The notes under the pieces: generated by a model | Told to the model about the DNA's origin: nothing | Database searches by the model: none | What the model saw: the letters and a program-made list of their open reading frames with translations, nothing else | Source of the DNA: Gnetum montanum | Taxonomy: Eukaryota > Plantae > Gnetophyta | Length of the DNA: 64,000 nt | Direction of reading: 5' to 3' | Assembly: GCA_015680685.1 (NCBI GenBank) | Contig: MNCI01002453.1 | Location: 247,710-311,709, forward strand | Position numbers and translations under genes: made by a program | Shown here: positions 4,900-38,910 of the stretch, one piece after another | How positions within the stretch are numbered: the first letter of the stretch is position 1 | Layout of the letters: each line of letters opens with the position of its first letter

Positions 4900-7083
4900 A
4901 GCAACTTGTTGAATGTTTATGGCTCTAGTAGCGTTGCATTGCTACGGTTGAGTGGGGAGTTTCCCTTGCATTGTTGGAGCAAGAGGTGTTATGGGAACTA
5001 CTGGTGGAAGAGGTGCAGATGGATTAGGAGGATGGTATGGGTATGGAGCATCGCCTGTAGGAGAAGGAGTCCTTCTAAGGTACTCTTGAACTTTGTAGTA
5101 AGGGTGGGGAGTTGTGTGACCCATGGAGTCATTAGAGAAATTAGCTACTGCACGTAGTAACCATATGGATCAAGTTGCCAGTAAGGGTACTATTGTTTCG
5201 ATGGTGGCATCCCCCATGACTGTGGGTATTGCCACTACTGATGCTATCTGATGGGTTGTGGTGGAGTTCCACTTAGATAATACGTCAATGGTTGGTGGAA
5301 CTATCTTTGGTTACCTTGAGGATAAGGTTACCTCTGGGGTATCTACCATCTGTTGAGTCTCAGGTTGAGTGCATACACCCCAGAATCTTGTAGATGTGAG
5401 ATGATTGGACAACATCCCTTAGGATGGTCATAGTGGCAGATCTCATATCCACTGCCATCTTCTGTGTCTAAATCCACAAACTCATCAAAGATAGTTATTT
5501 TTCCTTACCCTTGTCACGTGCAGGGCCTGAATCTCTCTACTTTTTTTTTGTCCTTGTGACTACTTAGTTCCTCCTTAGACTCAACAATCTTAAGGACAGT
5601 TTCAATTTTACTATCTAAGGAGCTTCATACTTCATCTATCTTAGCTGCTACTTCTATTGTTATTTTCTGAAGCAGCAAGGTTTTCCTATTCACCAACTCT
5701 TCGAGTGGTGCCTCGTCCTCTTCATCGCAAAATCTCACTCCCTTCTTTCGAAGAGAGGGATCACGGTGATATTATTTCGCACTAACTCTTTTTCGTAGCT
5801 TCACTTCTTCTTTGGCTACTTGTTCCAACAAGTAATGTATTTCATGGGATCTAAGTTCTGATAGTCTCCCTTGGGTGTATGTCCCAAGGGTTCTCCTAGT
5901 TTCATACCTTAGCCCATCTACGATGTGGCAGAGTTGATCCCGCTGTGCGTAACCATGGCCCAGGAAACAATGTAACAATGCATAGTAGTGGCCCATGGTA
6001 GTATCCAAGGGTTCATGAGTACCTTGCTTCCATCCTTGGATCTGCTTACGCAAATTAGACACTCTGGAGTATGTTTGATATTTATTGTTGAAGAGTTCTA
6101 ACATCTTGCTCCACTTCCTGGTGGTTTCCAGTTCTAAGGATCGGTACCAACTCTTTGCTTCCTTGATGAGTTTCTTGGGAAACAACTTTAGTTTTTTCCA
6201 CTTGTTTTCTATGTTTTCCAAGGTGTAGGCATCATGGAATGCCTATAAATGATTTTGTGGATCTGCATTGTATCCCCCTTCAAAGTGTGGGATATTGTTC
6301 ATGTCTAAGCACTTGATCCGATCGTCTTTTAAATGCCTTATTGGGATTCTCACAACCTTCGTTATATTTAGCATGCTTTGAGTGGCAAGTAGGGGTTCTT
6401 CATGATCATCTCTTTCATGACCTATGATGTCTCTGTTGTTCCCTACTTTCCCTTTGTTCATGCCTGGACTCTCTAGACTACCCTCATCCTCTCTCTTGAC
6501 TCTCTCATCAAGTTCTCTCATTTTTCTTACCTTTATCCTCTCCGTTATGCTCTCTATGATTGCGCCCTGATGTGGAAGAAGAGGGTGAGTGATGTGATGA
6601 AGGTGAAGAAGAAGGAGAACCATCGCCATGACGATGTTTCTTACCTTCCCTTCTATGGCTTTGGCCTCGATCATGATGATGATCTGAGTGCCTATCCTTA
6701 TCATGTGTTGTTGTTCCCTCAGTGAACAGTTGGTGTTCATGGGAATTAGAACTAGGGTTGTGTATCATTGAGTGTAGATTTTGATACCCCACCTCACCAT
6801 CGTTAGGAGGGGGAACATCTTTTGATAGAGAACCTGTTGTAAGTGGTTCACCATCTCTTATTTCACTTAGGACGTGTGGGACCTCTTTGCCCTTTAACAG
6901 TGTATGTTGGCTCTCCTACCTTGAGTTCCTCATACATTGTGCAGCTGTAGGATAGTAATCCCTTGAGTCAAAATCAGCCACAACATATTCAGCATAGAGC
7001 TGAGTCATGCTAATTTGTGCCAAGGCACGGAGGAGCATGTTGGTGACTGCATGATCCAAAGGTAACACTATGTTACCTTGCAA
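4900..7083 (-). pseudogene. gag: gag of A1 (capsid-like domain, Cys/His motif near 5410-5450, Pro/Gln-rich tail)
   Basis: NIPHFEGGYNADPQNHL...KLKLFPKKLIKEAKSWYRSL...W..M...F retrotransposon gag signature, with stops and frameshifts. Confidence 0.8.
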
Positions 7084-7088
7084 GTCTT

Positions 7089-8495
7089 TGAAACACCAAA
7101 AAATTTTGGCCTAGCACTTTTAGACAAGAATCAAGCTAAGTCATGCTACTGCCCAACATGAGTATAGCATGACAAAACTTGAGAGCCTTCAAAATGACAT
7201 GAAATAACATATAATGGAGCAAGAAATAGAGCAAGCAAGGTCCTCCTAGGGCCCATAGGCCACTGCACCAACTTTTGGCATTCATAATCAAAATTTTTGG
7301 GCTCAAAATGCTTGGTTTTGGCTAAGTGTAATTTGGCTACCTTTTCTTACGCTGCTTAGTGTAAGGCTCAGCGTCACCAAATTTTAGAGTCCTGAAATAG
7401 AGCCAAAATGACATATAGATCAGCCAAAATTTGGCACACAGAACCCTCATGACCCATAGCATGCAGATCCACTCTAAAAATGGGTCTCAGAAGTCAAAAA
7501 TGGGTTTAAAATGCACTATTTTTAGGTAAGATGTTGTTAGTGACGCTGACATTGATGCTGATGTTGACGCTGACACTGACATTGGATGTTGATGCCAAAA
7601 CAAGCTATGCACACATCAGAGCCAGATCTATGCACGCTGGAGGCTTTGGAAGCACAAAAAAAGCACAAATCTGTAGATCCAGAGGTCAAACACCAGATCC
7701 ACTCTTGTACTTTAACTTTCTTTGTACATTTTGCATTTTTCAGCTTATCAAGCTCTTACGCTATGGGTTACACACGTTAGCATAAGAGATTTTGGTCACA
7801 CTGCACACTGTACATTGTAAAATTTTTTTCATCTGGTCAACACACACACCTATTGCCCAATCCAAATTTTTCTCACCCTGCAGCCATGGATCTTCACACA
7901 AATCCACATCCCATGGATTAAACCCGTATAAATACCCTGATTTTCCACTAGATCAAGGTTGGAAAATTTAACCATAGAGCATTCTGTACACTTTTTATGC
8001 TAAACATTCCAAGCAACATTTCATATGCTGGGCATCAGACTTAGTCATGCTGAGCAAGGGAAATCTTGGTCATATTATAGAACATGCAACCAGAAACCTG
8101 TATTCCCCAGCATCCATTCACATCAGGGCTAAACGTCTGCCTTGCAATGATTCTGCAACTACATTATGATTGGTGCACTTCTTTGTAATTTTCAATCAAT
8201 ACAAACAGTTGCATTTTTGCCAATCATATTTACAGTTTACATTATTTTTTGTTTACGCTATTTACACCTTGTTTACGTTGATCCACGTTTACGTTTGTTT
8301 ACAATAACCTGGTGCATTACCATTGTGTATGCTAGGGAAAGTCCTTGTTTGATCTACGTGTAGACCATCCAAGATACTCTACCTTCGTTTATTTCCAGCT
8401 TGCCCTCGCGCGAAGGTAGGGTCTGCTGTATCTCTCCAGAGATCTTTAGGCATTCGTTTTCTTCCAACGTTACACCGACAATTTTGGAAAGTACA
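7089..8495 (+). repeat. 5' LTR of B (1407 bp)
   Basis: TGAAACACC...AGTACA; collinear with 21167-23173; TATA-like TATAAATA near 7927. Confidence 0.9.
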
Positions 8496-8500
8496 GTTAA

Positions 8501-8520
8501 TGGCACTAGAAGGAGGGTCG
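8501..8520 (+). promoter_or_regulatory. PBS of B, complementary to the tRNA-Asn 3' end
   Basis: TGGCACTAGAAGGAGGGTCG, a CpG-decayed TGGCGCTAGAAGGAGGG, 5 nt after the LTR. Confidence 0.8.
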
Positions 8521-8879
8521 TTTCTTTGTTAGATTCACCTCTTAGCATCACCAGATCCAGCGTTCACATGCTGCTGTGATTGTTAGCGTTCCTACGTTGC
8601 CTTGCTCCCAGCGTTTAGGTGCTATTTCCCGCTCATAAATCCTATTATCTAGTTCAGACGCTATTTCAGAATTTTTTAGACACATTCCTGCTTGAATCAC
8701 AGCGTCCTGCACCTTCCGTTATCAGATTCAGACATTGCCCATGGCGTCCTACACTCTCTACTGGTTTCAGACATTGTTTACAGCATACATCATCCTTATC
8801 CCTCTTTTCTGAGGCTATTCACAGCATCCAGATCTAAGTTTTCTTCTCAGACACTGCATTCAACACTTAGTTTTCTTAC

Positions 8880-9560
8880 CCAAACGTTTGATCAAGCTGA
8901 CGTTTGGTTACACTGATGTTGGTCAAGCTGATGTTTGGTCACACTGAAGTTGGTCAAGCTGTGCCTCACCCTATCTTATACGCTGTGCACATTAATTATA
9001 TGCAGCCCCTCTTGAAACTCCTTGTACACTGCTCCTAGTGTTCATACACTGCAGTACATTTTTATACGCTGAAATTCCTTTGATACGCAAGTCAACACTT
9101 AGCCATATTTTCTCTCTTTGACACTTAGCCATATTTTCTCATTTACACACGTTGACATTGGTCATGCTAATGTTGGTCAAGCTAAGATTTGGTCATGATG
9201 ATGTTTAGTTAAGCTGAAGTTTGGTCAAGCTAACGTTTGGTCACGCTGACGTTGGTCAAGTTGACGTTTGGTCAGGCTGACGTTGGTCAAGCTGACGTTT
9301 GATCACACTGACGTTGGTCAAGCTACTCCTCACCCTATCTTATATGTTGTGCACATTAATTATACGCTTCCCCTCTTGAAACTCCTGGTATGCTACTCCT
9401 AGTGTTCATACACTATAATACATTTTTATATGCTAAAATTCCTTTGATACGCAGGTCAACACTCAGCCATATTTTCTCTCTCTAACACTTAGCCATATTT
9501 TCTCTCTCTAACACTTAGCCATATTTTCTCTCTTCAATACTTAGCCATTTATTTTCTTTC
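8880..9560 (+). repeat. Leader tandem repeats of B: 15-16 bp CTGACGT(T)TGGTCAAG units, ~25 bp ACACTTAGCCATATTTTCTCTC units and a ~360 bp duplication
   Basis: Units are visible directly; block 8965-9117 is repeated at 9328-9480. Confidence 0.85.
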
Positions 9561-9585
9561 TCTTACACTATTACATATAGACACT

Positions 9586-11445
9586 TTGACAATGGACCCT
9601 GTGCACACCAACACCACCACCATGTCCATTACCAACTTTGGTACCACGATCTCGGGTCCTGTCACCGCCGTTGAGTCCATAGTTGCCCTTGGCATGATGA
9701 ATCCTCAAGGGCCATCTCACTGGTCACTGAGACTACAAGGTATAGATCCCATGTTCACCATCCTAACTCCCGAATAATATAACTTTATTTGCGTTAAAAT
9801 CCAAGCTAACCTGGCCATTGACCGAGCTGAACTAGATGCAAAGAGACACTATGAGATCATCAACAAAGGAGGTCACAAATTTTTTCCCACCCCCTACAAC
9901 ATCATCCCACTCTTTGAATACCACCATGAACCCCTATCCCAACTCCTCATGGCCATAGAGCTTCAAAACGAAGATGAGGAAGATAATTTTGTAGCTCAAT
10001 CTAAGCATCGGGATTCATACCATACTCTCAGTCTGCATACTTATGCGAATCTATTATTTCACCCTTTCATGGGGGAGACCATGTCCCTCCATTCATTTAA
10101 ACCCACTCAAGCACATGTCCGCCAATAGGAAATGCCCACTCTTATTTCCACTCTCCCTATGATCGATGCTCAATTCAATGTACCCATCCCCACTATTCCT
10201 CCAGTCACCAAGTTATCCCCTCTCTTATAAGTACAACCCCAAAAACCCCCCTCTCAAACTAATGTAGGAGCAACTTTCCCATCCCAAGTAATCGGGATAC
10301 CATCTGTGACACCCACTTCCACATCTACACACTTCATCCCACAAGTGCAAGTTCATACCACACCCCTATCTCCTCCAGTACAACACTAGGTACAAAGTCT
10401 CCCTTCACAACCCACAATTAGCCAATGGCCCACTCCTATTGCTCAACAACAACAACAACAACAACCTACACCTTACAGTATGCCTCCCTTAGTAGCACCC
10501 ACTGTAAATATTCCACAAGTGCAACCTCCGACCACTTAACTCTCTTCTTTCTTGCCCACTGCATAGTAGTCTAATTTGTATGGTACTTAAACTAGCCAAC
10601 CTACTGCTCCACCAAGTGCCCAAGAATGGGCCGAAGCAAAAAAGATGATGCAGGAGCTCACTGATGAGGTAAAACGTCTCAAAACTACTAACAATGAAGA
10701 GCTTAAAGTATTATACTTTTACCAAGACGATCCTATTAGCTCTTTGGTACCACCATTAACCTTGCCCAAAGGAGTTTCTTTGCCTCAACTAATCAAATAC
10801 AATGGGGAAGGAGACCCCAACGCCCATCTAGTCACATTTAGACTAGAATGCTTGTTGCTTCAAGCTTGGCCCCATGCAATCTTGCATGTGTTCGCCATGT
10901 CCCTCACTGGCAGAGCATTAGACTGGTACCGAGCCTTGCCTCACAACTCCATATCCTCTTTGGAGGATCTCTTATACCAGTTTGTTACCAGGTTTAAATA
11001 CAACCTGAAACTTGAAGCAACCTTGGATAGTCTGATACAGGTAAAACAAGCACCGCTTGAACCTGTACAAAAATTTATCCAAAGATAGAGTGTTGCACTC
11101 AACGAACTTCATGAGCCAATCCCAGAAACATACCTTCTTACCATTCTTAAGGGAGTTGTGAATGATTTTGTGAAATCAAAACTATACTATCTAAATGTGC
11201 ACACTCTAAGCCAAGCTTTTGTATATATTAAAAACATAGAAGAGGTAGCCCAAAATAGTCATGACCCTGCTTACTCAGCCTTCAAAAATCAACACACTAA
11301 AAAAGATAAAGAAAAGGCTAAAGCAACAGTAGTAGCAGTAGTAGAGACTTAGCCTACCAACATGGGACAGCAAGGCAGACCACCTACTACTCCTGTCAAC
11401 TATGAGAGAACCACTCCTGCACATACACCTAAAACATCTACCATG
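9586..11445 (+). pseudogene. gag: gag of B
   Basis: LPQLIKYNGEGDPNAHL...FAMSLTGRALDWYRALPHNSISS is a Tat/Ogre-type gag motif; in-frame stops present. Confidence 0.85.
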
Positions 11446-11969
11446 TAGGGGACCGATTCCCCACATCAACTAAATTTGTAGTAGTAGAAGAGATGTCTGG
11501 TTTTAACTTGATATTGGGACGACCATGGTTAGCCCAGTTAAAGGTGGTATCCTCACCCATCCACCAAGAGATTCACCTGCCTTACGAGGGCAGTGAAATA
11601 ATTATACATGGTGATGCAACTACACCCAACACCTCTACACACGTAGGCACAAACCAAGGCTTAGAGGTCGAATTTGATGAGCCTAAACAAGATGACACTA
11701 CTCTCGAGCCTAAAAAAGACACAACACCCATTGATAACCAAAATGATAACCAATCTCCATACCATGATCCCCCAGAAGATATGGAAACATTACAAAACAT
11801 GGAAACATCGGAGCATGTTGACATAGGAATTATTTCCCCAAACGTCTCATGGTCAGAATTACCGTTTAACATAATTAGCAAAGGAGACGCTGATATGCCC
11901 AACACACCCAATCAATCCTCGAAAATTAAAGAAGCTACTCAACTATTAAAAAACTATCGTCTGAAATGA
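11446..11969 (+). pseudogene. C-terminal half of the protease plus tail of B (catalytic half deleted)
   Basis: FVVVEEMSGFNLILGRPWLAQLKVVSSPIHQEIHLP...IIIHGD; no D-x-G motif upstream. Confidence 0.8.
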
Positions 11970-12149
11970 CGTTAAACTACTATTTTCCGAAATGACATTA
12001 AACTATAGCTGTCTGAAAAGACATTAAAATACCACGTCTGTAATGACATAAAACTAGCCACGGTCAGGAATGACTGGTTTATTTTAAAACCCATTGAAAC
12101 AGTTCAAATCTCTCTTGTTTTCTTGTGGCCCGAAATGGCTTTAAACTAG
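11959..12149 (+). ncRNA. Cluster 1 of coremin-like (putative xrRNA) hairpin-TAAACT motifs, ~6 copies
   Basis: GTCTGAAATGACGTTAAACTAC (11959-11980) and variants at 11985, 12011, 12036, 12062 (partial) and 12128. Confidence 0.6.
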
Positions 12150-12382
12150 AGCGAGTTACGTTTCCATTTCTTTAAAATTACATTCTTTGTTTGCATGCAT
12201 AGTTACATCCTTGCTCTACCAATTATTATTCCCCCTACATTTCTTCTACACAGTTATCATTTCAGTACATTCATACTTATATTTACAAACAATTAAAACA
12301 ACAAAAGGAAAAAAATATAATAATGAAAATAAAAATAAAAAATCTTTTGTGTTTATGCTTGTGTTTATCAAAAGTTTGGACA

Positions 12383-13025
12383 NNNNNNNNNNNNNNNNNN
12401 NNNNNNNNNNNNNNNNNNNNNNNNNNNNNNNNNNNNNNNNNNNNNNNNNNNNNNNNNNNNNNNNNNNNNNNNNNNNNNNNNNNNNNNNNNNNNNNNNNNN
12501 NNNNNNNNNNNNNNNNNNNNNNNNNNNNNNNNNNNNNNNNNNNNNNNNNNNNNNNNNNNNNNNNNNNNNNNNNNNNNNNNNNNNNNNNNNNNNNNNNNNN
12601 NNNNNNNNNNNNNNNNNNNNNNNNNNNNNNNNNNNNNNNNNNNNNNNNNNNNNNNNNNNNNNNNNNNNNNNNNNNNNNNNNNNNNNNNNNNNNNNNNNNN
12701 NNNNNNNNNNNNNNNNNNNNNNNNNNNNNNNNNNNNNNNNNNNNNNNNNNNNNNNNNNNNNNNNNNNNNNNNNNNNNNNNNNNNNNNNNNNNNNNNNNNN
12801 NNNNNNNNNNNNNNNNNNNNNNNNNNNNNNNNNNNNNNNNNNNNNNNNNNNNNNNNNNNNNNNNNNNNNNNNNNNNNNNNNNNNNNNNNNNNNNNNNNNN
12901 NNNNNNNNNNNNNNNNNNNNNNNNNNNNNNNNNNNNNNNNNNNNNNNNNNNNNNNNNNNNNNNNNNNNNNNNNNNNNNNNNNNNNNNNNNNNNNNNNNNN
13001 NNNNNNNNNNNNNNNNNNNNNNNNN
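12383..13025. other. Assembly gap (N run)
   Basis: Ns. Confidence 1.
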
Positions 13026-14659
13026 AGATCACACAAAACAAAAAATTATATTCCAACCATACTCTCCGCATCCCAACATATGAACAGTTGCGGTCCAAGG
13101 TGGACTGCCTATACCTTAGTATTCAAATTAGTAATAACTTATGGAAGGTCCGATGGAAGGTCCGCATGAAAGATCTCAAAGAAGAATTTCTATATAAAGC
13201 AAGAAAAGCAGCAAAGACACAGATATTTGGACTGTCTACCATGAGTCAGGAGAAAGTGGTAGAATTGTATTTAATGTACTGTAATAATTATTCTGAAAGT
13301 ATCACCAATGAAAGTATAACCAATTATGATGAAAGTATCCAATGATGATGAAAGTATCTTATTATGAAAGTTGTAAGTATCTAATTAACTACAAACTCAA
13401 GCAACATATGCGGGAATCGTGTAAAGGTAACGTTTCGATGTCAACTAGCCGATGTCAACTAGCCGAGTAGGTATTGGTGAACGAAGAGACAAAATGGTAA
13501 TGACGAAGGTCCGAGTAGGTACTGGTGAACGAAGAGACAAAATGGTAATGACGAAGGTAAGAATCGTAACAGCATAAGCAAATTGAATTTTACGAGTGTC
13601 AGTCAACCCTGTGGCACGAAAATGACTAAAAATTAGAAAGAGATGATAACCCAAACATTGGTACGGAAAGTGACCACGGAAAAGCAGGTAATGCAGGTAG
13701 TAAAAGTAATCAGAACAAATTGGTTATGAGTGATATCCCGAAGGTCAGAAGTGAGGGTCCAATATAGGGAAGTGTAAGCTGGAAGAGCAAATCGAGCTTT
13801 TTAAGTAGATCGAGATTTTTAAGTAGAAGCTCCCCCGTATGCATGACAGTGAAAGCGTATCCCCCGAACAAAGGTTGATCTCGGGTATATGTACATCTGG
13901 AAATGGGAGGATTTTCTGGAAATCAATATTTCTATTCTCTAATATGGACCTCTCACCTTGAAATCAATATTTCATTTAAAATGGACCTATCACCTTTGCC
14001 AATAACTAAACTGGTAGGTCAAGCTCTGTGATCTACCTTCGCACGTAGCAAGCGCTGCAGTGGTGAGTCAGCCCCCCGGGAGGTCATGTCAAGGATCGAA
14101 AGCTCCGCAACCCATGACGATGACCCTGTTTTGTTTTTTCTTTTTTCCACCTCTGATGTTGGAAAATCAAATGATGCCCTCCCTCTGTTAGTCACCTCCA
14201 TAAATTGCGTACGGAAAAATAGCATAGGTATGGCGATATGTACGATTTGGGATATAATGCCAGTAATATGTTAATCAACATATAATTAATCTGTTGCATG
14301 AACCTCATTCATATACGATTAATGAGGGGTTACTGCCAGCTCATTAATCTAGCTAGAAGGATTAATGCTCCTACATAATAAACTTAGTTGATTAATGGGA
14401 TGATAGCGTCATGAATCATTAATCATATTCCATCGCCATACGGGGTATCGCAATTTGTTAGTGTTTGTACACCGGGAGCCATGACCTGCTTGGTTACATG
14501 TATAGGATGGACCGAGAGCCATAGTACGGTACCTTCTTATTGCCATGGTTTAACCCTTCTACGGCGAATCTACGCTAGAATATTTTCAATGGGAGTACTG
14601 TCCCTTCGCTGAGTATGGAGGATAAATCAGCAACACCGAGTATCAACGACAATACCACT

Positions 14660-15790
14660 GCACACGCTGCACAAATAAGAGGCCTGACTCATGTTGACAG
14701 TTTTACAACACTCACGCTTGACAGCCCAAACCGAAAAACTCACGCTGCAACACAAACGAGGGCAACAACTCATGCTCATGCGGCACACAAGACGACAACA
14801 ACTTGACATAAATAAAAATAATTCATAATAGTGCCGTAAGGCCCAAATCAAGTTATGCCTATCAACACTGACGCCCACATCTGCTATTCACGCCAAATGG
14901 TAAGAGATACTCACGCTGCAACTAGGGTATCGCACTAAAATACACTGCCAAGTATGGTGCTAAAATACACTCACCCAGCAAACAAAAATGATTCATGCCA
15001 TGAGTACGGATATAAACAAAATGATTCACGCTGTGAGTATGGGTATAAACACTCACGCTGCACATTCAAAACTCACACTGCATATACTGAAATCAGACGA
15101 GGGAGGCCAAAGAGACCAAAGAATATCCACTCATGTTGATTTTGGCCCTTCATTCAGGCAGAAAAACTCACGCTGACGTTGGGGCAGACACTCACGCTAA
15201 TGCTTGCTGCTGTACTCATGCTAACCCTGATCTTAACATCACATTCATGCTAATCTTTGAGTCATGTACTCATGCTAGATGAGGCCTTGTACGCACAATG
15301 CGGATAATTCCATCTATGAACTCACGTTGATTGAGGCAAAAAACGTCCACGATCTCAAAATTAGGCATTCAAACCCTCATTTACAGACCTTAGAAATGCA
15401 ACTAACTCTAGAGATGCAGACCCTACAAATCACAATGAGTAGAAATTGCAAAAACCTAGTCCTCCCCGAAACAAAATACACCATTCACGCTGCCTATGGA
15501 TACGCATCACGTACGCTCATAAGTCAAAACGATCAGGCCTCAAGAAAAATGCACATCAGGGATAATGCAGTCCAGAAATTAGCTACTCACGTTAAGGAAA
15601 TTAAATTATGCTGGAAGCTACTCCAATCCTCATGCTAGAAGAAACACTTGTCTTCACTCATGCTGCTCAATATTTGCAATCACTCGTGCTGCTCAATATT
15701 TGCAATCACTCACGCTTGTCATCTTTAAGGTGCTCATGCTAAGCACTTGTCTTCAACTCACACTTCGACCAAATCACTCACGCTTGCATC
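14660..15790 (+). repeat. Dispersed array of ~25-30 ACTCACGCTG-like 10-mers with variable spacers
   Basis: Copies near 14710, 14738, 14909, 15051, 15166, 15190, 15214, 15320, 15483, 15584, 15656, 15707, 15776 and others; many show CpG decay (ACTCATGCTA). Confidence 0.8.
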
Positions 15791-16026
15791 CCGTCTTTCC
15801 CTTTGTATCGCCTATCCACACGTGGTGCGTTATCTTCATCCTTTATCTTTTATTTTTATTTTATTTCAGTTCATTTTCACTTTGTATCAATATGCTTCCA
15901 AGGTAAATAATTTCTTATGCATGTTTAAATATCCTTCTTTTCCAAAAAAATATATGTATGGCTCAGGTATCTAAAAGCTAAAACAAAACAAAACGACAAC
16001 ACATATGAAAAGTTTAAATTACTCAT

Positions 16027-16139
16027 GGCCTAGTAAGGCCTTAAACTGCCACACATGGCCCGATATGGCCTTAAACTACCAACCTCCAACTTGATATGGC
16101 TTTAAAATATCATACATCTAGGCATGATGGTAAACTGCC
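16027..16139 (+). ncRNA. Cluster 2 of coremin-like motifs, 4 copies
   Basis: GGCC-TAGTAA-GGCC-TTAAACTG; GGCC-CGATAT-GGCC-TTAAACTAC; one decayed copy; CATC-TAGGCAT-GATG-GTAAACTG. Confidence 0.55.
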
Positions 16140-16185
16140 CCTGGTGTACCATCAGTTACATTTAAACATAAAATCAATCTCTTAA

Positions 16186-17890
16186 GAAAAAAGAAAACTC
16201 ACCCTCGCTAACATAGCTCCCTGTTTCATTGGCAAGAGCAAACACATAGATAGCAAGCAACTCTTCATATTGTTGTTTATCAATGGACCACATGGAGTGA
16301 TTAAACGAGAAATCAATCTAGAGTCCATTGATTTAGACTCCCCAACATACGACAATTTAGTGGCATCAACCCAAGAAACATTAGATTGCTTTAAAGGAAT
16401 GACAAAATCTCTGGACTTAGAAGCCGATAACATCACCGAAGATCCCCTAGCTGAAGTCCCCATAACTACGTTAGATGACAAAGTTAAAATTTTAAAACTA
16501 AGTACTCTGTTAAATCTACAACTTGCCACTGACATAACTCAAGTGCTAAAAGACAACATGAAAGCATTCGCTTGGTCTTACATTGACATGCTTGGGCTCA
16601 ACCCTCAAATAGTCCAGCATAACATTATACTTGATCCAAAACTAAGGCCATTAAAAAAAAGCACACAAGGTCAAGCCTGAAGTCACATTGGTAGTTCACA
16701 ATGAGATCACGAAGCTTTATCAAGCTGATTTCATCTGAGCTATGGATTACGCTGATTGGGTATCCAACATGGTTATAGTCCTAAAGAAGAACGGAAGCAT
16801 TCGTCTATGCATTGACTTCCGAGACCTCAACATTACAACCATAAAAGATGACTTCCCACTACCTAGCATCGATCAACTTGTTGATTCAACCGCTGGGCAT
16901 GCATTGTTATCCTTTATGGATGGATTTTCAGGATACAACCAGATTAGGATCAACCCCAAACATCAACTTAGGACAACCTTTATGACACCATGGGGTACAT
17001 TTTTTTGTACAATGATGTCATTCGGTCTCAAGAATGCTGAGGCTACGTATCAACGAGCAATGACATTCATCTTTAGTGATTACATGTTCAACTTGCTCAA
17101 TTACTATGTAGATGACATTGCGGTCAAATCAAAAATAACTGAGCAACATGTACAAGATCTGGATTTGGTACTGAAACGTTGTGTAAAATATGAGCTTAGA
17201 CTCAACTCAAAGAAATTTGTCTTTGGGGTTAAAATAGGCAAAATGCTTTGATTCATCGTGTCTGAGATAGAGATATGGGTAGATCCGGATAAGGTTAAGG
17301 CAACAACAAATCTGAAACCACCTAGAAACCTTACTGAAATTTGCAGTCTACAAGGTAGATTACAGTTCATCAAACGTTTCATTGAAAAACTGACAGACAA
17401 GTTGAGGCCTATGCAGCACTTATTACACAAGAATGTTCATTTTGAATAGACTCCATAGTGCCAAGAAGCCTTTGACAACATCAAAACGACACTAGCTCAA
17501 CTACCGACAGTTTATCCAACCACAGAACAATAAACCATTTTACATCTACCTTGCAACATCCCAATCATCTATCGCATCTATGCTTTATCAGAAACGCAAT
17601 GATGGAACTAAAATCCCTGTTTAGTACTTGAGCCATGCATTAGTAGCCTACGAACAGTGTTACAATGATGTGGAAAGATCATGCCTTACCCTTATCTTTT
17701 CTTTAAATAAGTGGTGACATTATCTCTTCTATAACCAAGTGAATATCATCCTGTAAAGACAACGTGCTTAGAGCTATCACAAACAACATATACGAATCAA
17801 GCAAGATAGCTAAATGGAAAGCGATGATTGCTGAGTTTGACCTGCACTACATAGCTCAATCATTAGTTAAAGGTTAAGCTATAGTCAATC
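16186..17890 (+). pseudogene. pol: pol of B: reverse transcriptase and RNase H
   Basis: FAWSYIDMLGL, WVSNMVIVLKKNGSIRLCIDFRDLN, SFMDGFSGYNQI, YVDDI; RH motif Y...E.SCL.L at ~17650-17700. Confidence 0.95.
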
Positions 17891-17979
17891 AAATGACCGC
17901 ATCACCGACACAAGACCAAGCAACGATCAACCCAGAGTTTCCCGATGAGAACGTAAACACAATAGATACAGTACCTGAT

Positions 17980-18370
17980 AACTACGATGTAATTTTAAAC
18001 TTTGATGGAGCATCAACCTCCCAAGGAGGAAGTGCTGCAGCAGTTATCACATATCCCTTTGGGGAGATCCGACCCTTTGCTTATCGTTTAAACTTTCCTT
18101 GTACTAACAATGTGGTAGAGTACGAAGGTCTTCTTAGAGGTATCATGGTAGCACTAATGTCAGAAATCATATGGCTTGTAGTTAGAGATGACTCAAAGAT
18201 AGTCATCAATCAGGCCACATACGTATATGCATGTAAAGCTTTACATTTACAACCATACTGTGACTTGACAAAACACCTATTGAAACAATTCACAAACATA
18301 GATGTGCAACATGTTTCTAGAAATAACAATACCATTGCAGAAGAACTTGCAATACTAGCCCTAAACATTT
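17980..18370 (+). pseudogene. Additional archaeal-type RNase H (aRH) of B, between RH and INT
   Basis: LNFDGASTSQGGSA...CTNNVVEYEGLLRG...RDDSKIVINQ...HVSRNNNTIAEELA. Confidence 0.9.
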
Positions 18371-18479
18371 CACCTGACATGTTTCATTTGTTGCCCAGTT
18401 CCATAATGAGTTGTCCCAAGCCCATAAATAACGCTCTTGATGAACTACCCATAGCATCCGTTAGCACAACACATGTTGT

Positions 18480-19722
18480 GGAATGGTATGATGACATAAA
18501 TGAGTACCTTCTACATGGTGAACCACCTCAACATCTAACGAATGCTAAGAAGGACGCAGTGTAGAAACGCTCTTGGCAGTATTCACTAGTAGGGGACATG
18601 TTATGTCGTAGATCCTATGAAGGCATTTTGTTAGTGTTCGTTAGTAGCATCGATGGCTAAACCATCATAGAGCAGGTTCACGAAGGACTTTGCAGAGGGC
18701 ACATAGCACCCAAGGCAATGGCAACCAAAATCAGATGTTTAGGCTACTATTGGCCACACATGGAGTACGATTGTTTCTCCAAAGTCAAAACATGCAACAT
18801 CTGTCAAAAACATGGTGATCTTATACATGTGCCACATAATGAGTTGCATACAGCTCAAATCACATGGCCTTTCCAGAAATGGGGGTTAGACATCATAGGA
18901 CCAATAACTCCCCCATCTTTCGCAAGACATAGCTTCATTATAATTGCAATGGAATATTTCACAAAATGGGTAGAAGCTATTCCTCTTAGGAAAACCACAT
19001 CAAACCAAGTATGAAACTTCATCCTTGAAAACATTGTGACTCGTTTTGGCATTCCAATGACAATAATCATTGATAACAAGCCATAATTCAGCAATGTCAA
19101 ATCCAAAACCTTTTGTGATAGCCTAGGAATCAAACATTCATTTTCATCACCATACTATCCTCAGAGCAACGATCAAGCAGAATCCACAAATAAAACAGTC
19201 ATCACGGTGCTCAAGAAAATGCTTAATCAAAGCAAAAGAAGATGGCACAAACAACTAGTGTACGCGCTATGGGCATATCGAATGATGCACAGAACATCCA
19301 TAGGTAAAATACCATAAAGTCTTGTTTATGGTTCAAAAGCTGTTTTACCTTTGGAGTTGCAGGTACCTTCGTTGTGGATCATACTCTCCAGACTCCTCGA
19401 TGAAAGTCAAAACAATGACTCGCGCATTTTTGACCTTGACTCGGTTGAGGAGGAACGAACATGCACACTATATCAAATCGAGTGGTACCAGAAGCAACAA
19501 CGACAACGATATCAACATGACATTCACAAGCGCCTGATCACGGGAGGTGACTTTGTCCTTAAGGCAATCCGTGAACACTTGGACAAATTCTCAGCCAACT
19601 GGAAAGGTCCTTACTTGGTCACCAAAGCATATGAAAATGGAGCATTCAAACTAACCGATATGGACGGTAACAAGCTTGCTCATCCAACAAATCACATGTA
19701 CCTCAAGTCATTTTACATCTGA
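18480..19722 (+). pseudogene. Integrase of B
   Basis: HEG.C.GH, GYYWPHM..DC...VKTCNICQKH, WPFQKWGLDIIGP, YFTKWVEA, KFSANWKGPY; stop at 19722. Confidence 0.93.
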
Positions 19723-19743
19723 ATAAAGCTTAAGGTATGCATT

Positions 19744-20049
19744 CGTCCTGGAATCACGATGGTAAACTGATACCACAGACTTGTCCAGGGATCATGATGA
19801 TAAATTGATACCACAGAACGGTCCTGAAAAAATGACCAAAAATCGATACCACAGATCATCCAGAATGACAATAAACTATCACACTCTCATCTGACAAAGT
19901 CCGTCAAGACTATAAACTAGCTTGCCTCTCCATAGTTTGCCATGACTATAAACTAGCATTGCACTATCTACTATGATGCTAAATTAGCAATGTCCAACAG
20001 GTTATGATGTAAACCTAATCCAAGATAGTCCATCAAGACTATAAACTAG
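19744..20049 (+). ncRNA. Cluster 3 of coremin-like motifs, ~9 copies
   Basis: For example AGTC-CGTCAA-GACT-ATAAACTAG (19898-19920), TAGTC-CATCAA-GACTA-TAAACTAG (20026-20049) and CGTC-CTGGAATCAC-GATG-GTAAACTG (19744). Confidence 0.6.
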
Positions 20050-21151
20050 CAACTTCTTCACTGGTCTACTAATCTATTGTTGTAATCAAACACCATGTCT
20101 TCATCAACCTACCGCATGAATTCATCACATGGACTCTAAAAACATTTCCTATTGCTAAATGTTGTTTGCCTGTAGTCACACATGGTGTCTTCATTCCATC
20201 GGTTGCATCCATGTTTAAAGTGTTAAGCTAACACATTCAATCGTGGTTTTCTTGTCTTCTTGGAGTTGTGTTTGCAGGATGACACCCAGAGGTGTTCATA
20301 CACGGATGCACTTCATCATGGCAACAAGGTACCACATTGTTCCTCATGTATGTAACCAGGTTAATCAAACTATTCACAAGTACATTCCTAGTTTCCCAAA
20401 TGTCCCTCATTCCATAGCATGTGCTCTATTTAGTTACATTTCTCAGATACATCCCAGTCACCCCAAAACTCTGAACACATGGTTGCACACTATAACTCTC
20501 AAAGTGATTGCAACACACAGCACAACCCATGATACAATTACAGGCACACGAGCACGTGTACAAAAAAAATGCTCTTCCCACAAAAAAAAAAGAAACAAAG
20601 AAAAAAGAAAAAAGAAGAAGAAGAGAGAAAAATCCATCACAAAACCCTTGGTACTTCCCATACAAGCCCTAGGTAGGAAGGTACTTGTCTTGGAAGAAAA
20701 CACTCATGTCTCAAACAATCATGTTGCATCCCACCACATGGATTTGGCTATTGGACAACAGGTTCCTTTTGACACTCAACAAGGATCTTGTTTCTCCAAA
20801 GAATGCACCACCTCATCACGTGGCTTTGGTTGTGACAACGAATTCTATTAAATAGGACATAAGAGTCTCGTTCTTCCAAAGGATGTACATTCCATGCCTT
20901 GGTCCCAAGTCCACTAGATACTAGCTACTGAAAAGGACCAACATGATGTGTTCACACAAGAGCATTCCTCTTCTCACAGTCACAAATCTTCTCCCTATAC
21001 ATCTCAAAACCTCATTTCCTAATCCCATGTACTTCTGAACACGGTGCGATGACATTTGGCCAAGTGCCAAAGAACAATGCTGGATGCTAAGTTGTTTGTT
21101 GTGTTTTATACCTCTTTGTCGATGCTACTTAGGTAGATTCTTCCAAGAATC

Positions 21152-21164
21152 AAAAAAAGGGGCC
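21152..21164 (+). promoter_or_regulatory. Polypurine tract of B
   Basis: AAAAAAAGGGGCC just upstream of the 3' LTR. Confidence 0.8.
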
Positions 21165-21166
21165 AA

Positions 21167-23173
21167 TGAAACACCATAAAATTTTGACCTAGCACTTTTA
21201 GACAAGAATCAAGCTAATTCATGCTACTGCCCAACATGAGTACAACATGACCAAACTTGAGAGCCTTCAAAATGACATACAATGGAGCAAGAAAGGTCCC
21301 CCCAAGGCCCATAGGAAACTACACCAACTTTTGGCATCTAGAATCAAATTTTTTGGGCTCAAAATACTTGGTTTTGGCTAAGTATAATTTGGCTACCTTT
21401 TCATACGCTGCTCAGCGTAAGGCTCAACGTCACCAACTTTTGGAGCCCCAAAATTGAGTTAAAATAGCCTAAAATAAAGCATAGGGATTCCCCATGAACT
21501 TCACCAAGGTCCCTAGTAGCTCCCAGCCTCTAGAAAATCAAGATTTGGGCCTCAAATGTGCCACTTTGACTTGGTGACGCTGGGGTTAGTTTTCAGACGC
21601 TGGTCAACGTAAGGCTCAATGTCACTAAATTTTGGAGCCTTGAAATTGAGTCAAAATAGCATAAAATCAAGCATAGAGATCCTCCATGACCTTCATCAAG
21701 GTCTCCAGTAGTTCCCAGCCTCTAGAAAATCAAGATTTGGGCCTCAAATGTGCCACTTTGACTTGGTGACGCTGGGGTTACTTTTTAGACGCTGCTCAGC
21801 GTAAGGCTCAGCATCACCAACATTTGGAGCCCCAAATCTGAGTCAAAACAAGCTAAAATCAAGCATAGGGACCCCCATAACCTTCACCAAGGTCCCCAGT
21901 AGCTCCTAGCCTCTAGAAAATCAAGATTTGGGCCTCAAATGTGCCTTTGACTTGGTGACACTGGGGTTACTTTTCAAATGTTGCACAGTGTAAGGCTCAA
22001 CGTCACCAAATTTTGGAGCCCCGAAACAGAGCCAAAACGACATCTAAATCAGCCCATATTTGGCACACAGAACCCTCATGACCCATAGCATGCAGAACCA
22101 CTCTGAAAATAGGTCTCATAGGTCAAAAATGGGTTCAAAATGCACTATTTTTAGGTCAGATGATGTTAGTGATGCTGACGTTGGACGCTAACACTGACGG
22201 TAGATGCTAACGCTAGACATTGACATTGATGCTGGATGCTGATGTTGGATGCTGATGCTAGAATGGGCTACACACACATCAGAGCTAGATCCACATACAT
22301 TGGAGGCTTTGGCAGCACAAAAAAAGCACAGATCTGCAGATTCGGAGGCCAAACACTAGATCCACTCTTGTACTTTAACTTTCTTTGTACATTTTACATT
22401 TTTCAGCGTATAAAGCTCTTACACTATAAGTTACACATGTCAGTGTAAGAGAATTTTGTCATGCTACATGCTATACATTGTAACATTTTGTGCATCCAGT
22501 CAACGCACACACCTGTCACCTGATCTGAATTTTTCTCATCCCGCAGCCATGGATCTTCACACAGATCCACATCCCATGCATCAAAACCGTATAAATATCC
22601 TGATTTTCCACTAGATCGAGGTTGGAAAATTTAATCATGGAGCATCTTGTACACTTTTCATGCTGAACATTCCAAGAAACATTTAATACATTGGGCATCA
22701 GAATTAGTTATGCTGAGCAAGGGAAATCTTAGTCATACTGCAGAACCTGTAACCAGAAACCTGTATTCCCCAGCATCCATTCACATCGGGGCTAACGTCC
22801 ACCTTGCAATCATTTTTCAACTATGTTCTGACTGGTGAACTTCTTTGTAATTTTCAATCAATACAAACAGTTACATTTTTTCCAATCATATATACAGTTT
22901 ACATTATTTTTTGTCTACGCTGTTTACACATTGTTTACGCTAATCCACATTTATGTTTGCATTTGTTTACATTTTTTTACAATAACTCGATGCATTGCCA
23001 TTGCATATGCTAGGGGAAGTACTTGTTTGATCTGCATGCAAACCATCCAAGGCACTCTGCCTTCGTTTATTTCCAGCTTGCCTTCGTGCAAAGGCAGGGT
23101 CTGTTGTATCTCTCCGGAGATCTTTAGGTGTTCGTTTTCTTCCAGCCTTACGCCGATGATTTCGAATAGTACA
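21167..23173 (+). repeat. 3' LTR of B (2007 bp), containing a ~191 bp tandem unit x3 plus a partial copy (21404-22030)
   Basis: Same termini as the 5' LTR; units start near 21405, 21597, 21789 and 21980. Confidence 0.9.
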
Positions 23174-23178
23174 GTCTC

Positions 23179-23362
23179 TCCAACGCATCTGTTCATCTTG
23201 ATGAAGGATAAAAGTAAAATTAGGTATATACTCATCGAGATGAGTATATTCCACCCTATATTGTTGAGGAACCAATTGGTTTAGGTTATGTGTTTTTGAT
23301 TCCCGACTATTCTTTGTATGATCCCTAGGTGATGTGCTCTTGTGAGAAGAAGAAGAAGACAT
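23179..23362 (-). pseudogene. gag: 5' end of A1 gag ORF (MSSSSSHKSTSPRDHTK...MRWRD), cut by the B insertion
   Basis: In frame with 7083 downward across the TSD; homologous to 575-760. Confidence 0.75.
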
Positions 23363-23485
23363 GATGTCTTATCGGTATGCTAATTTTACCATTATAAAAT
23401 TTTTTGTTGATTAACTCTAAGGTTTGTTTAAGCTCCCAACGATGTAAATGATCTCTTATGTCCTACTTAGCGCACAAACACTTAG

Positions 23486-23503
23486 TCCCCGACAATGGCG
23501 CCA
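23486..23503 (-). promoter_or_regulatory. PBS (tRNA-Asp type) of A1
   Basis: Minus strand TGGCGCCATTGTCGGGGA. Confidence 0.85.
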
Positions 23504-23504
23504 A

Positions 23505-24296
23505 TGATGAGTGGCGAGGTACCCCTACACTCAACCATACGAATACGAGCGTAACACGAGTGATTCCGTCAAACTGCATAGACTAAGTGCCTACATGCCT
23601 CATGGAACACTTAAGGTTAATCATTTTTTGTCTTCCCAGACTTACTTGTATTTGTCACGGTGTATGGGTAAGTAAGTTCGAGGTATATGATTTTTATATC
23701 TTTTCTATTTTATCTCCTATGCTATTGAGGTGAATGGTTGAAGAAGCTAATTTCTAACTTTAACTAACCAACTAAGTCTAAATTAACCTAGCATCAGCAT
23801 TCGTTCCCACTTACCATTCACACCCTGAACCGATGCAACTGTGGCTACCAAACGCTAGTCGTTGCTGGGATGACCATGCGTAACACACGTGCTTGAAGCG
23901 ATCATACTGAGGCACTTAACTAGGAGAGAATGGTTGAGAGAGATTTAATTACTAATAAAGCATGTAAATGAATAATAGTAAATAACAATAAATAAAATCC
24001 TAATTAGCCTATTCCATGCACTGCAAGGTTTATCCAAGAAGTTTGTCTTTATTTCCATACACAAACTTGTGTTCAGGTACAATGTCTGCTTGAATAATGA
24101 TCCGTCCACTTTGGAGTTCCTACTACAGGCACATGGAAAATATTCTATCTCAGGAGAGATCAAACTACTAGAGTTTCCCTACGGTCTAGGCTAGAATGGA
24201 AAACAAGGAAGAGCCACCTTTTATTTATAGATATTGTGATGCCATATTGTGGGGGATGACACGATATCGTAGACCATGCGATATTGCATCCCATCA
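23505..24296 (-). repeat. 5' LTR of A1 (792 bp)
   Basis: TGATGAG...CCATCA; followed by GGAGT, where the integrase of C1 resumes (compare intact CATAGGAGT near 33941). Confidence 0.88.
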
Positions 24297-27200
24297 GGAG
24301 TAAACTTAATTTGAGGGCTGGTTTGACTAGATGCTCTATCTCTCTTAAGGATTAGGTCGACTACTTGAAACACTTTGGCAACATATTTCTTATCAAACCA
24401 TTTTTTGACAATGTATTAATGACTAAATAAATTTTTGATTGCTTTGATCCTTTTCAGGTCTAAATTCCAAATATCATATGTACATGATATTAAATATTCG
24501 TTAGTTGGTAAATAGTCTAAGAAAAATTGATATGTCAGAATTTGAAAATTTATTGGCAATATTGGTTCTTGTCCATACACTAAATCATATGGTGTTGTTT
24601 TAATGAATTCTTTATAATGAATCCTATTCATCTAGACTACCCATTTTAGTTGTTCATGCCAAGTTTGTGGGTTTTGGGCTATCATTTTCTTAATTTCATT
24701 CAATATAATTTTGTTGGAGGACTCAACCAAACCATTACCTTGTGGATAATATGTAGTTATAGCCTTGATCATAACATTATGCTCTCTAGCCCAATTTCTA
24801 AACTCTATGGAGATGAAGGTGGGTCTGTTGTTGACTACTAAAGCGTAAGGATACCAATATATAGAGATTATATCATTTTATAATATGTGAATAACCTCAC
24901 AAGATGATATGGTTTTAGTTGCTTTTTCTTCTAACTAATGTGTGCAATCATCAATGGTTGTTAAGATAAATTTGTGTAGGGTAGTGGACAAAGGATTAAT
25001 AACTCCAATAAAATCTAAAGCCCATTATGCAAATGGTCTAGTTTCTATTATAGGCTGTAAAGGGGATAAACTCTTGGGGTCTTTACCCTTAAATATTTGA
25101 CATTGGCCACAATTTCTAACTAGGTTGTAAGTTTTATTGATCATAGTGGGCCAATAATAACCAGCTCTCATGATTTTATGAACTAACGATCCTATATGTC
25201 CTTCCTCATGGAGCTATTTTAAAGCATTGTTAGCTTCATCTTGGTTTAAGCACTTAAGGTATATTCTTTGGAAATTCTTTCTAAAAAGTTCACCACTAAT
25301 TAGAGTAAATTTAGAACATTTCAATACTAAAAGCTTTCTTTTATATCAAGGTAAACTCGAAGGATAATGATGAAAGGTTAAATAAAATTTAATATCATCA
25401 TATCATGGATCATGCAAGTGATTGGGAGCAAGTGGAATATCATTTTCCTCATCAATGGATAATATGTGAAGAGGAATTAATTCTTCATCTTTGGGTGCAT
25501 CACAATTTTCTAAAGTTGAGGCTTTGGTAATTAGCTTGGAAAGACTAGTTCCTCTAACTAACTTGGCTACCTTTCATTGAATATCGCATTCTTGCAACTT
25601 CATAACCCATTTAGCATGTTTTTCACTAGGATCTTGTAATTTAGCTAAAGCAATGGTGGTTGGGTTAGGGACAATGACAAAAACCTTTGCATTTAATAAG
25701 TACTAGTGAAATTTCTTTAAGGCTTTTATCACAACATACAATTGCTTTTCTATGGATAAGTATTTTAATTCTGCATTCTTTAAAGGTGTAGACATGAAAG
25801 CTATGGATCTCTCACCTTGATCAAATACATCTTGGGTTAAGATAGCAGTGGTAGTAATAATGCTAAGAGAAAGTAATTTTTGTACCAAGGAGAAGCTATG
25901 ATAGGGGCATCTATAATGGCCTCTTTAATAGTAAGGAAAGCATTCTTTCTTTCATTTGTCTAGTGCATATTACTATCCTTCTTAAGCATCTCATTCAATG
26001 GTCTAACCAATTCAACATAGATAGGGATAAATCATCTAAAAAAGTTAATTTTCCCAAAGAAAGCCCTTAGATCAATATTAGATAAAAGGTAAGGTACTTC
26101 TAAAATTTCATTGACCCACTCAGGATCAATCGCAATCCCTTCTACTACATGACCTATAAATTTACCACTTTGAACGTCATAGATGGATTTCTTTGCATTC
26201 AAAGTGATGTAGAATTGACTACATCTTATAAAAATATTTTTAAGGTCTCTAAGGTATGTACCCTGATCCTTGGAGAAAATGGTTAAATTATCTAGGTAAA
26301 TAATAATGCACTTCCTAATTAGCCCCTCAAAAGTTTTGTCCATAGCTCTTTAAAAGGTAGAACTAACATTTATGAGACCAAAGGGCATTTTAGGGAATTG
26401 AAAAGTTCCCCATTTTGTCTTAAAAGCTATTTTATACTAGTCTTTCTTATTCACTAAGATTTGATTATATCCTAAATATCCTTCTAAAAAGAAATACATT
26501 TAAGCACCATTCACGATTTGTAATATCTCCTCCATAAGAGGGACTAGATATAATTATCCTTAATGCAATAAGTATTAAGGTTACAAAAATTAATACATAA
26601 CCTTAACTAACGAATTCATTTGCTAATAGGCATGAAGTTTCATATCCAACTTGAATGTATCACGGGGTAAATAATTTTGGATTCTAGGAACTTATCAAAT
26701 TCTACTTTCATGAGGGCTTCAATCTTTGGATTTATAGGTCTAAGTTTTTGCCTAAATGATTTCATTTTTGGCTTAAGGGGGATCATATGTGTCATCGCTA
26801 ATGGATTGAAAGTTCTAAGATCTTTGTAAGTCCAAGACAAAACATCATTAAACTCATGTAGTAATTTAACTAAGCTTTGCCTTTCATCTAGATGTAAACA
26901 AATCCATATTTTAATAGGGTATTATCATCCTTTCTTTTGAATCTAAATTGTTTTAGTTTTAGCTAACATTTGTCAATTAGTATTTTTAGATAAGTCTATG
27001 GTGTTGGTATGTAAGTCATCAAATAATGCTTCCCTAGCTACTATTTTAGGAGATATTTGTTTAAGAGTATAACATCCTTTGATATATCTCCTTGATCACT
27101 AAATTCTCTTTCAAAAAATAAAAATTTACAAACATGATTATCATCATCAAATACTAAAAAAAGAAAAGACATTATCAGGAATACAACAAGACTTAACTTT

Positions 27201-29261: not shown

Positions 29262-29392
29262 NNNNNNNNNNNNNNNNNNNNNNNNNNNNNNNNNNNNNNN
29301 NNNNNNNNNNNNNNNNNNNNNNNNNNNNNNNNNNNNNNNNNNNNNNNNNNNNNNNNNNNNNNNNNNNNNNNNNNNNNNNNNNNNNNNNNNNN
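29262..29392. other. Assembly gap (N run)
   Basis: Ns. Confidence 1.
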
Positions 29393-30752: not shown

Positions 30753-30769
30753 CCCTTCTTCTAGCACCA
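30753..30769 (-). promoter_or_regulatory. PBS (tRNA-Asn type) of C1
   Basis: Minus strand TGGTGCTAGAAGAAGGG. Confidence 0.8.
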
Positions 30770-30775
30770 AAAAGG

Positions 30776-38600: not shown

Positions 38601-38910
38601 AAAGGTTTTAGGTAACTTAATCAAAAATTGAAATAGGAAAATAAACTAGATTTTTAGAACAAAAAAAAAAGAATTGAAGATGGATGAATGTTAATAAGAA
38701 CAGGCAATAGAAATTTTCAGAAACTAGAAAAACATAAATTTTCAAAATCTATAAGTTGGTAACTAAGAATAGAAATAGAAATGAAAATTGGAAAGAAAAA
38801 ATAGAAACAGATAGTGGAAATCAATGGGAAAGAATAGAAAAATTGATATTTTTAGAAAAAAAAAGGGGAAAAAAGGTTGGAAAACTACCCTCCTTCTAGT
38901 GCCAAAAGGG
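32631..38910 (-). mobile_element. Internal region of C2, a paralog of C1 with RH and the INT N-terminus deleted near 34300
   Basis: INT C-terminus 33893-34279 (KFTPMWLGPFQV), RT 34310-35270 (YLDD), aRH 35499-35966, PR, gag; PBS 38888-38904 (TGGCACTAGAAGGAGGG). Confidence 0.9.

Follow-up and report, generated by a model that had tools for sequence, protein, structure and literature searches.

One decayed Ogre-type Ty3/gypsy retrotransposon in the 64-kb window, by which we mean the whole stretch of DNA that was analysed, contains arrays of the hexaloop coremin motif (xrRNA_C) in three clusters, all of them on the sense strand of the element. Cluster 1 (11959..12057, + strand) is made of four tandem hexaloop copies, at 11959, 11985, 12011 and 12036, with a spacing of 26, 26 and 25 nt. 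It is followed by a partial copy (12061..12076, +), which consists of the hairpin only and is placed as the second hairpin for the copy at 12036 (-5.8 kcal/mol), and then by a copy with the compensated stem GCC/GGC and the loop CGAAAU (12128..12162, +), after which there is a weak 4-bp second hairpin. Cluster 2 (16028..16145, +), with copies at 16028, 16058, 16089 (decayed) and 16116, lies upstream of pol, at a distance of about 45-160 nt from its open frame at 16186. Cluster 3 (19745..20049, +) starts 23 nt behind the integrase stop with the long-loop copy at 19745, and includes a second long-loop copy at 19783 and hexaloop copies at 19858, 19899, 19935, 19966 and 20028.

Coremin arrays and their host element

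Part of this picture had been drawn in an earlier note on the same DNA. The five copies quoted there, from 11959 to 12128 on the + strand, were found exactly as claimed, the partial copy is present, and the stop codon TGA (11967-11969) of the ORF at 11433-11969 does sit inside the first motif copy. The note had put the total at about 19 copies; the arrays exist, and a recount with relaxed rules brought the number down to 17, made up of 13 copies in the hexaloop register, three with a longer loop (16116, 19745 and 19783) and the partial one. It had also claimed that the clusters bracket ORF boundaries; clusters 1 and 3 are at stops, and cluster 2 is not behind a known stop.

A degenerate pattern drawn from the note has 9 matches in the window against 0.41 expected, and none of 100 shuffles reached 9, although this test is circular. 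Circularity is avoided by a weight matrix whose training set was 65 distinct copies from viral contigs. At more than 14 bits it has 10 matches in the window, none of them on the minus strand or outside the three clusters (clusters 1, 2 and 3 have five, one and four, respectively); shuffled controls (n=40) gave 0.0125 matches per strand above 12 bits. The same 10 matches, 7 of them with E<0.05, were returned by a covariance model built from 34 viral copies, along with one weak match on the minus strand (E=3.2). The random scatter over strands and positions that the note had named as evidence against its claim is thus not what is seen, since the 10 strong copies are all on one strand and all clustered. 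The first 21 nt of the copy at 12128 are identical to a copy in an RNA-virus contig (L056). A search of the region 6000-24000 with Rfam 15 at E<=10 gave no relevant match; a hammerhead or retrozyme reading was dropped, as it had no Rfam support.

The host is a complete, decayed element of the Tat clade (7089..23173, +; 16.1 kb), assigned from its LTR pair, its domains and a reverse transcriptase (RT) tree, with a gap of Ns at 12383-13025. Its ends are TG..CA and it is flanked by a 5-bp target duplication with one mismatch. The 5' LTR (7089..8495, +) is 1407 nt long and has a K2P distance of 0.144 to the 3' LTR (21167..23173, +), which is lengthened to 2007 nt by a 192-nt tandem repeat; this unit, repeated 3.3 times at 21397-22021, makes the 3' LTR 600 nt longer than its partner. 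A PBS-like site (8501..8517, +) begins with TGG 5 nt behind the 5' LTR, and a polypurine tract (21152..21166, +) directly precedes the 3' LTR. The 5' leader has tandem repeats of its own, of 16/31 nt and 26 nt (8886-9569), which are unrelated to coremin.

Every reading frame of the element is broken. The gag fragment (10591..11088, +; Pfam Retrotrans_gag, E=2e-06) contains stops and frameshifts. The fragment behind it (11433..11969, +) is a protease-like C-terminal ORF fragment, recognized by tblastn to P0048 (E=6e-09) and by blastx; it had no match in Pfam and none in the PDB. Word-index protein searches gave no match. The pol region (16186..19722, +), also broken, has RT at 16739-17248, followed by RNase H (RH), an additional RNase H (aRH; Pfam RVT_3, 17878-18561, +) between RT/RH and Integrase_H2C2, and integrase up to the TGA at 19720-19722. 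On the protease side, relatives cease to be similar at about 11615-11730, and similarity picks up again at about 16315-16420. The Tat/Ogre context given in the note holds on the strength of the aRH behind RH, the Pfam domain order (gag, RT, second RNase H and integrase zinc domain) and the RT tree; Ogre and Retand are recognised by an aRH that sits between RH and integrase (PMC6317226). The closest relatives of the RT are angiosperm polyproteins, with 47-57% identity, and in the tree it groups with proteins of Hibiscus, Vitis, Fagus, Punica and Ulmus with a support of 97/93, the rows of this tree being without clade labels. The viral collection contains no relative of the element's RT or integrase.

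How pol would be expressed deserves some attention, given the position of cluster 2. In the Ogre subclade an intron between protease and RT fuses gag-protease to pol. No splice donor with at least 5/7 consensus matches was found before the stop at 11967 of our element. There are a strong splice acceptor at 15870 and a donor at 15903, both upstream of cluster 2, and the 33 nt between them, which include an ATG at 15893 and lie 125 nt upstream of the cluster, could be a micro-exon. Judging from these sites, pol might come from a separately spliced RNA in which cluster 2 is intronic. Coremin can stimulate frameshifting (PMC10321173), and an in-frame A AAA AAC is found 4 nt before copy 1, yet a role in -1 frameshifting was rejected: the -1 frame closes 13 codons on, and pol is 4 kb away.

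Coremin rules and the long-loop variant

The requirements for coremin have been published: two hairpins, the first with 3 bp or more and the second with 2 bp or more, a loop of the form YGAD or YGNNAD on the first, and the spacer bases A16-A20 (PMC10520033, PMC6546385). In the assays described there, hexaloops of the form YGNNAD stall Xrn1, those beginning with U being resistant but weaker, and the loop CGAAAU was itself assayed and found resistant (PMC10520033); in the tetraloop context C21U or C21A lowers resistance more than three-fold (PMC6546385). According to this literature Xrn1 stops one base before the first hairpin, and the small second hairpin is needed.

Measured against these rules, the identification of the window motif as coremin-type holds. 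Outside its loop, copy 1 is the same as the BNYVV motif given in PMC10520033, and the loop itself, UGAAAU, fits YGNNAD; the worry expressed in the note that a 6-nt loop may abolish activity is answered by the published YGNNAD assays (PMC10520033). The note had described coremin as a hairpin plus spacer, both of which are present, and had missed the required second hairpin. Among the 13 aligned copies, the first hairpin (at least 3 bp, closed by C-G) has three Watson-Crick pairs in 9, the loop follows YGNNAD in 9, including all five copies of 11959-12128, and the spacer AAACUA is of full length in 9; stem, loop and spacer are intact together in 5/13 (11959, 12036, 12128, 16058 and 19899). All four loop failures are G>A at loop position 2. 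The best local second hairpin has an energy between -5.8 and -0.2 kcal/mol for 8/13 copies and a positive one for the other five, which are copy 1 (+2.0 kcal/mol) and four of the five hexaloop copies of cluster 3. A C at position 22 is present in no more than 4/13. The poor second hairpins and this position speak against activity today.

Of 208 constrained positions, 15 (7%) deviate from the rules, 11 of them by C>T or G>A. This rate is half the LTR distance, and post-insertion decay may thus explain most of the damage. Between copies of cluster 1, the essential positions are 85% identical (128/150) and the 8-nt flanks 24-26% (19/80 and 21/80), a contrast that is inflated because the copies were picked by their likeness to the motif. 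The co-variation of the stem reported in the note, from GTC/GAC to GCC/GGC, is borne out, as the middle pair changes on both sides: over 27 rows taken from the window, retroelements and viruses, which are not independent of each other, this pair is U-A in 21 and C-G in 6 and is never broken. Three of the six C-G rows are from the window and possibly descend from one event. Folding z-scores of clusters 1 and 3 are non-significant (-0.66, -0.16, -0.37 and 0.16), and so is that of a viral array (-1.0); minimum-energy folding is uninformative for a motif this small.

Some copies depart from the hexaloop form in another way. In the copies at 16028, 16116, 19745 and 19783, AAACU (or what decay has left of it) is followed by G instead of A, and pairing is possible between the loop and the bases downstream, in runs of 3-4 pairs. 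A search for such variants, which demanded a pyrimidine at loop position 1, gave 90 distinct cases with a canonical copy no more than 400 nt away; in these the paired run between loop and tail averages 3.23, against 2.64 +/- 0.07 when partners were exchanged (maximum 2.88 in 2000 shuffles), with the caveat that the 90 cases are not independent and many come from one family, that of L132 described below. The mean run is 1.81 in 47 cases far from a canonical copy.

Arrays in other retroelements, viruses and prokaryotes

The note had named a lack of conservation in other members of the family as evidence against its claim; recurrence is seen outside the family, in unrelated retroelements that carry the same arrays. 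Metagenomes have the tandem pattern at 126 loci, of which 76 have long flanks; contigs without an ORF were checked by tblastn with retroelement proteins only. Three chromovirus families (L088/L092, L063 and L079), with 32-45% protein identity among themselves, and a LINE (L121) have two to seven tandem copies each, and on the coding strand the distance from the last stop to the array is 10 nt in L088/L092, 14 in L063, 85 in L079 and 76 in L121. The LINE is an intact two-ORF element with seven copies at a 34-nt period in its 3' UTR (L121:427-654, minus strand).

A different kind of carrier is L132:202-4574, a complete non-coding LTR element with LTRs that are 96% identical, a 5-bp target duplication and a polypurine tract. 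It has 38 model matches, all between the LTRs and all on the strand that the polypurine tract marks as sense. Its interior of 3.3 kb is packed with canonical and long-loop coremin copies. At least 15 further L132-like loci come from the same assembly; the related loci are L065, L066, L068, L070, L096, L127, L147-L149, L155, L156, L158, L159, L166, L172 and L174. L132 alone has an independent mark of strand; the strand labels of the other ORF-less loci were derived from the motif and are not evidence.

Two further loci are mentioned as observations in their own right. At L076:216-299 (minus strand) the stop of an ORF is located inside the first copy of the array, at the same offset as in copy 1 of the window, and decayed and long-loop copies follow. 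At L060:832-2089 and L090, the contig is eukaryotic and has five copies next to part of a dynein heavy chain; no transposon protein was detected on it.

It is worth pointing out that the array-positive elements were found through the motif, and that the four found otherwise have no arrays. Three of the four are the remaining elements of the window with a gypsy RT, of which two are Tat and none has a cluster; the fourth is L207, a gypsy contig from the RT alignment and sister to L063 in the tree, which has no motif on a contig whose 3' end may be missing. The two Tat elements, related to each other and found at about 24300-33600 and 33900-41900 on the minus strand, have aRH before RT, the TatI/TatII order, which is the order given for club-moss and gymnosperm clades (PMC6317226) and may point to a host outside the angiosperms. 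Near them there is one weak motif match, at 23624-23641.

The viral collection has 58 loci with the tandem pattern. Of 50 ORFs scanned from a subset of them, those that could be identified mostly encode polymerases or capsids of RNA viruses, besides some genes of tailed phages; a giant-virus bin accounts for one contig. In contigs of the small DNA virus type (L086:160-187 and L105:1097-1124) tandem copies are found 9 nt behind a circovirus-type capsid ORF. Well-paired hexaloop copies are also present in L010, L012 and L051, which have terminase, portal or head genes, in L013, and in L007, the giant-virus bin; these phage and giant-virus copies are single except in L007, and the one in L010 has a ribosome-binding-like purine run directly after it.

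The placement of the arrays was counted over 84 clusters in L001-L134, from which near-duplicate contigs had been removed only in part. An upstream ORF of at least 200 aa on the same strand is present for 45 of them, and the cluster starts within 30 nt of its stop in 28/45 and within 100 nt in 39/45; the opposite-strand control yielded 3 cases, none within 30 nt. Copies are spaced by 26-29 nt in 94/158 intervals, compared with the 26, 26 and 25 nt of the window. In prokaryote genomes there are 22 loci. All 17 distinct matches there pair properly, and a full upstream copy is present in 1/17, as compared with 34/52 viral and 116/171 metagenome matches; the bacterial loci (L185-L206) are properly paired single hexaloop copies, L196 alone being tandem. 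The fold is therefore widespread, and its tandem arrangement is a feature typical of the matches in viruses and metagenomes.

Proposed role and comparison with known systems

What could these arrays do for a retrotransposon? We think it rather probable that they acted as roadblocks to 5'-3' exoribonucleases (XRN4/Xrn1) on the RNA of the element. The observations behind this reading are the identity of the motif, the sense strand, the position behind stops, and the recurrence in unrelated retroelements. Once the RNA had lost its cap or been cut within its translated portion, the nuclease would halt on reaching the first copy still intact, and what remained would be 3'-coterminal RNAs that carry pol if the block was at cluster 1 or 2 and are non-coding if it was at cluster 3. 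Elongating ribosomes would not run into a fold placed right after a stop, and within an array each copy could borrow the hairpin of the following one as its second hairpin. The likely benefit would be slower decay of the RNA, or a decoy fragment like the ncRNA3 of benyviruses. This benefit is the weakest step of the proposal. The gain is not obvious, since a 5'-trimmed RNA without the primer-binding site is not reverse transcribable alone, and for the Arabidopsis copia element EVD, which may lack the motif, the loss of xrn4 was reported to change neither expression nor copy number (PMC8892269).

A broader reading is that several kinds of retrotransposons (plant Ogre-type elements, chromoviruses, LINEs and non-autonomous LTR elements) have repeatedly adopted a 22-nt xrRNA shared with viruses and amplified it behind stops for stable 3' subgenomic or decoy RNAs, including the long-loop pseudoknot variant. 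To this we would give an even chance.

The folds could also be real coremin folds with a mainly translational role, stopping scanning or re-initiating 40S subunits behind the stops, with cluster 2 throttling pol so that Gag exceeds Pol. In reticulocyte lysate, scanning ribosomes are stalled by hexaloop motifs, CGAAAU included, at least as strongly as by the wild type, and the results in wheat-germ extract were essentially no different (PMC10520033). In favour of such a role, arrays in general begin close behind stops, and cluster 2 is found just before a pol frame that is more than 4 kb from gag-protease. In L092, L063, L079 and L121, however, the array comes after the last gene, and the interior of L132 is geneless, so that these elements have nothing downstream to regulate. 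We regard a mainly translational role as unlikely, and it is in any case compatible with the blocking of nucleases. Some other job at the RNA level seems quite improbable to us, whether as a Gag-bound signal for packaging or dimerisation or as a block to the XRN2/XRN3 "torpedo" that lets Pol II pass cryptic poly(A) sites. Non-autonomous elements keep cis signals for their mobilisation, and the dozens of copies kept by the non-coding LTR element L132 and its family are in keeping with packaging; as for the nuclear variant, xrRNAs can delay XRN2-driven termination. Both have to contend with the same arrays behind stops in cytoplasmic RNA viruses with unrelated capsids, and packaging in addition with the array in a LINE (L121), which is without Gag.

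The last possibility to be weighed is that of neutral tandem repeats, in which a viral motif was gained by template switching, amplified by slippage, and is functionless in the element. Tandem arrays are common in the expanded non-coding regions of non-chromovirus elements (PMC6317226), this element has many unrelated tandem repeats, the distribution among retroelements is patchy, and the folding z-scores of clusters 1 and 3 are non-significant, although the last point is offset by the equally non-significant score of the viral array. Neutral repeats would have to account for three clusters 4 kb apart whose stems and loops differ, for conserved cores between unrelated linkers, for stem changes on both sides, for a loop-tail complementarity that tracks the individual copy, and for the same position in four unrelated families of coding retroelements, and we find this quite improbable as well.

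Should the roadblock reading be right, the wider meaning would be considerable. A 2021 review stated that xrRNAs had been characterised only in viruses and posed xrRNAs in eukaryotic genomes as an open question (PMC8374639); the arrays, with their 22 nt and published rules, are direct candidates for these. If they work, retrotransposons hold a counter to host decay at the RNA level, in a setting where XRN4 and RDR6 compete for transposon RNA (PMC8892269), and large genomes may contain many such roadblocks. We searched the literature by title and the start of abstracts, with most subscription journals outside this range, and found no report of coremin or xrRNA in natural retroelements; the papers that came up on coremin with Xrn1 and on resistant RNAs of BNYVV all dealt with viruses, and six motif strings had no match in the literature.

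Compared with known systems, the arrays are closest to viral coremin. They share with the hexaloop form (PMC10520033; the tetraloop form is described in PMC6546385) the first hairpin of 3-4 bp, the loop YGNNAD and the spacer AAACUA, and they share with the viral motif the sense strand, the tandem arrangement, the location in 3' UTRs or intergenic regions and, sometimes, a stop codon inside the motif (PMC10520033). Coremin is described from RNA viruses only in the accessible text of these two papers, whereas the carrier here is an LTR retrotransposon in a eukaryotic genome; the window arrays, known from sequence alone, further differ in their three clusters, their decay by transitions and the weak second hairpin behind several copies. 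Ogre and Retand elements are like our element in the position of the aRH, the 5-bp target duplication and the large non-coding regions with tandem arrays, which are mentioned without an RNA function in the accessible text of PMC6317226; the RT of our element branches beside, and not within, the sampled angiosperm group. The tandem xrRNAs of flaviviruses, which yield sfRNA, are similar in that serial exonuclease blocks open the 3' UTR and a 3' fragment is left, while their fold is different and much larger and has no sequence likeness to coremin (PMC8374639).

The long-loop variant is best compared with xrRNA_WCC, in which the loop pairs behind an A-rich spacer to form an H-type pseudoknot anchored on the penultimate loop A and the spacer U (PMC10321173), as the window loops may also do. 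Published WCC has a 4-nt loop with G first and the pair G8-C18 (PMC10321173), whereas the loops of the window variant are 6-10 nt long with a pyrimidine first and U, C or A last, their last base is unpaired with C, and the putative pairing runs 3-7 bp further in the 3' direction. As it departs from the rules of G5 and G8-C18, the variant is WCC-like and not a member of that class. The 2023 papers, in their accessible text, gave no solved structure, and such natural loop-tail variants supply covariation evidence for the coremin pseudoknot. On these comparisons the motif itself is known, and what appears to be new is the class of element that hosts it, together with what looks like a new variant of it.
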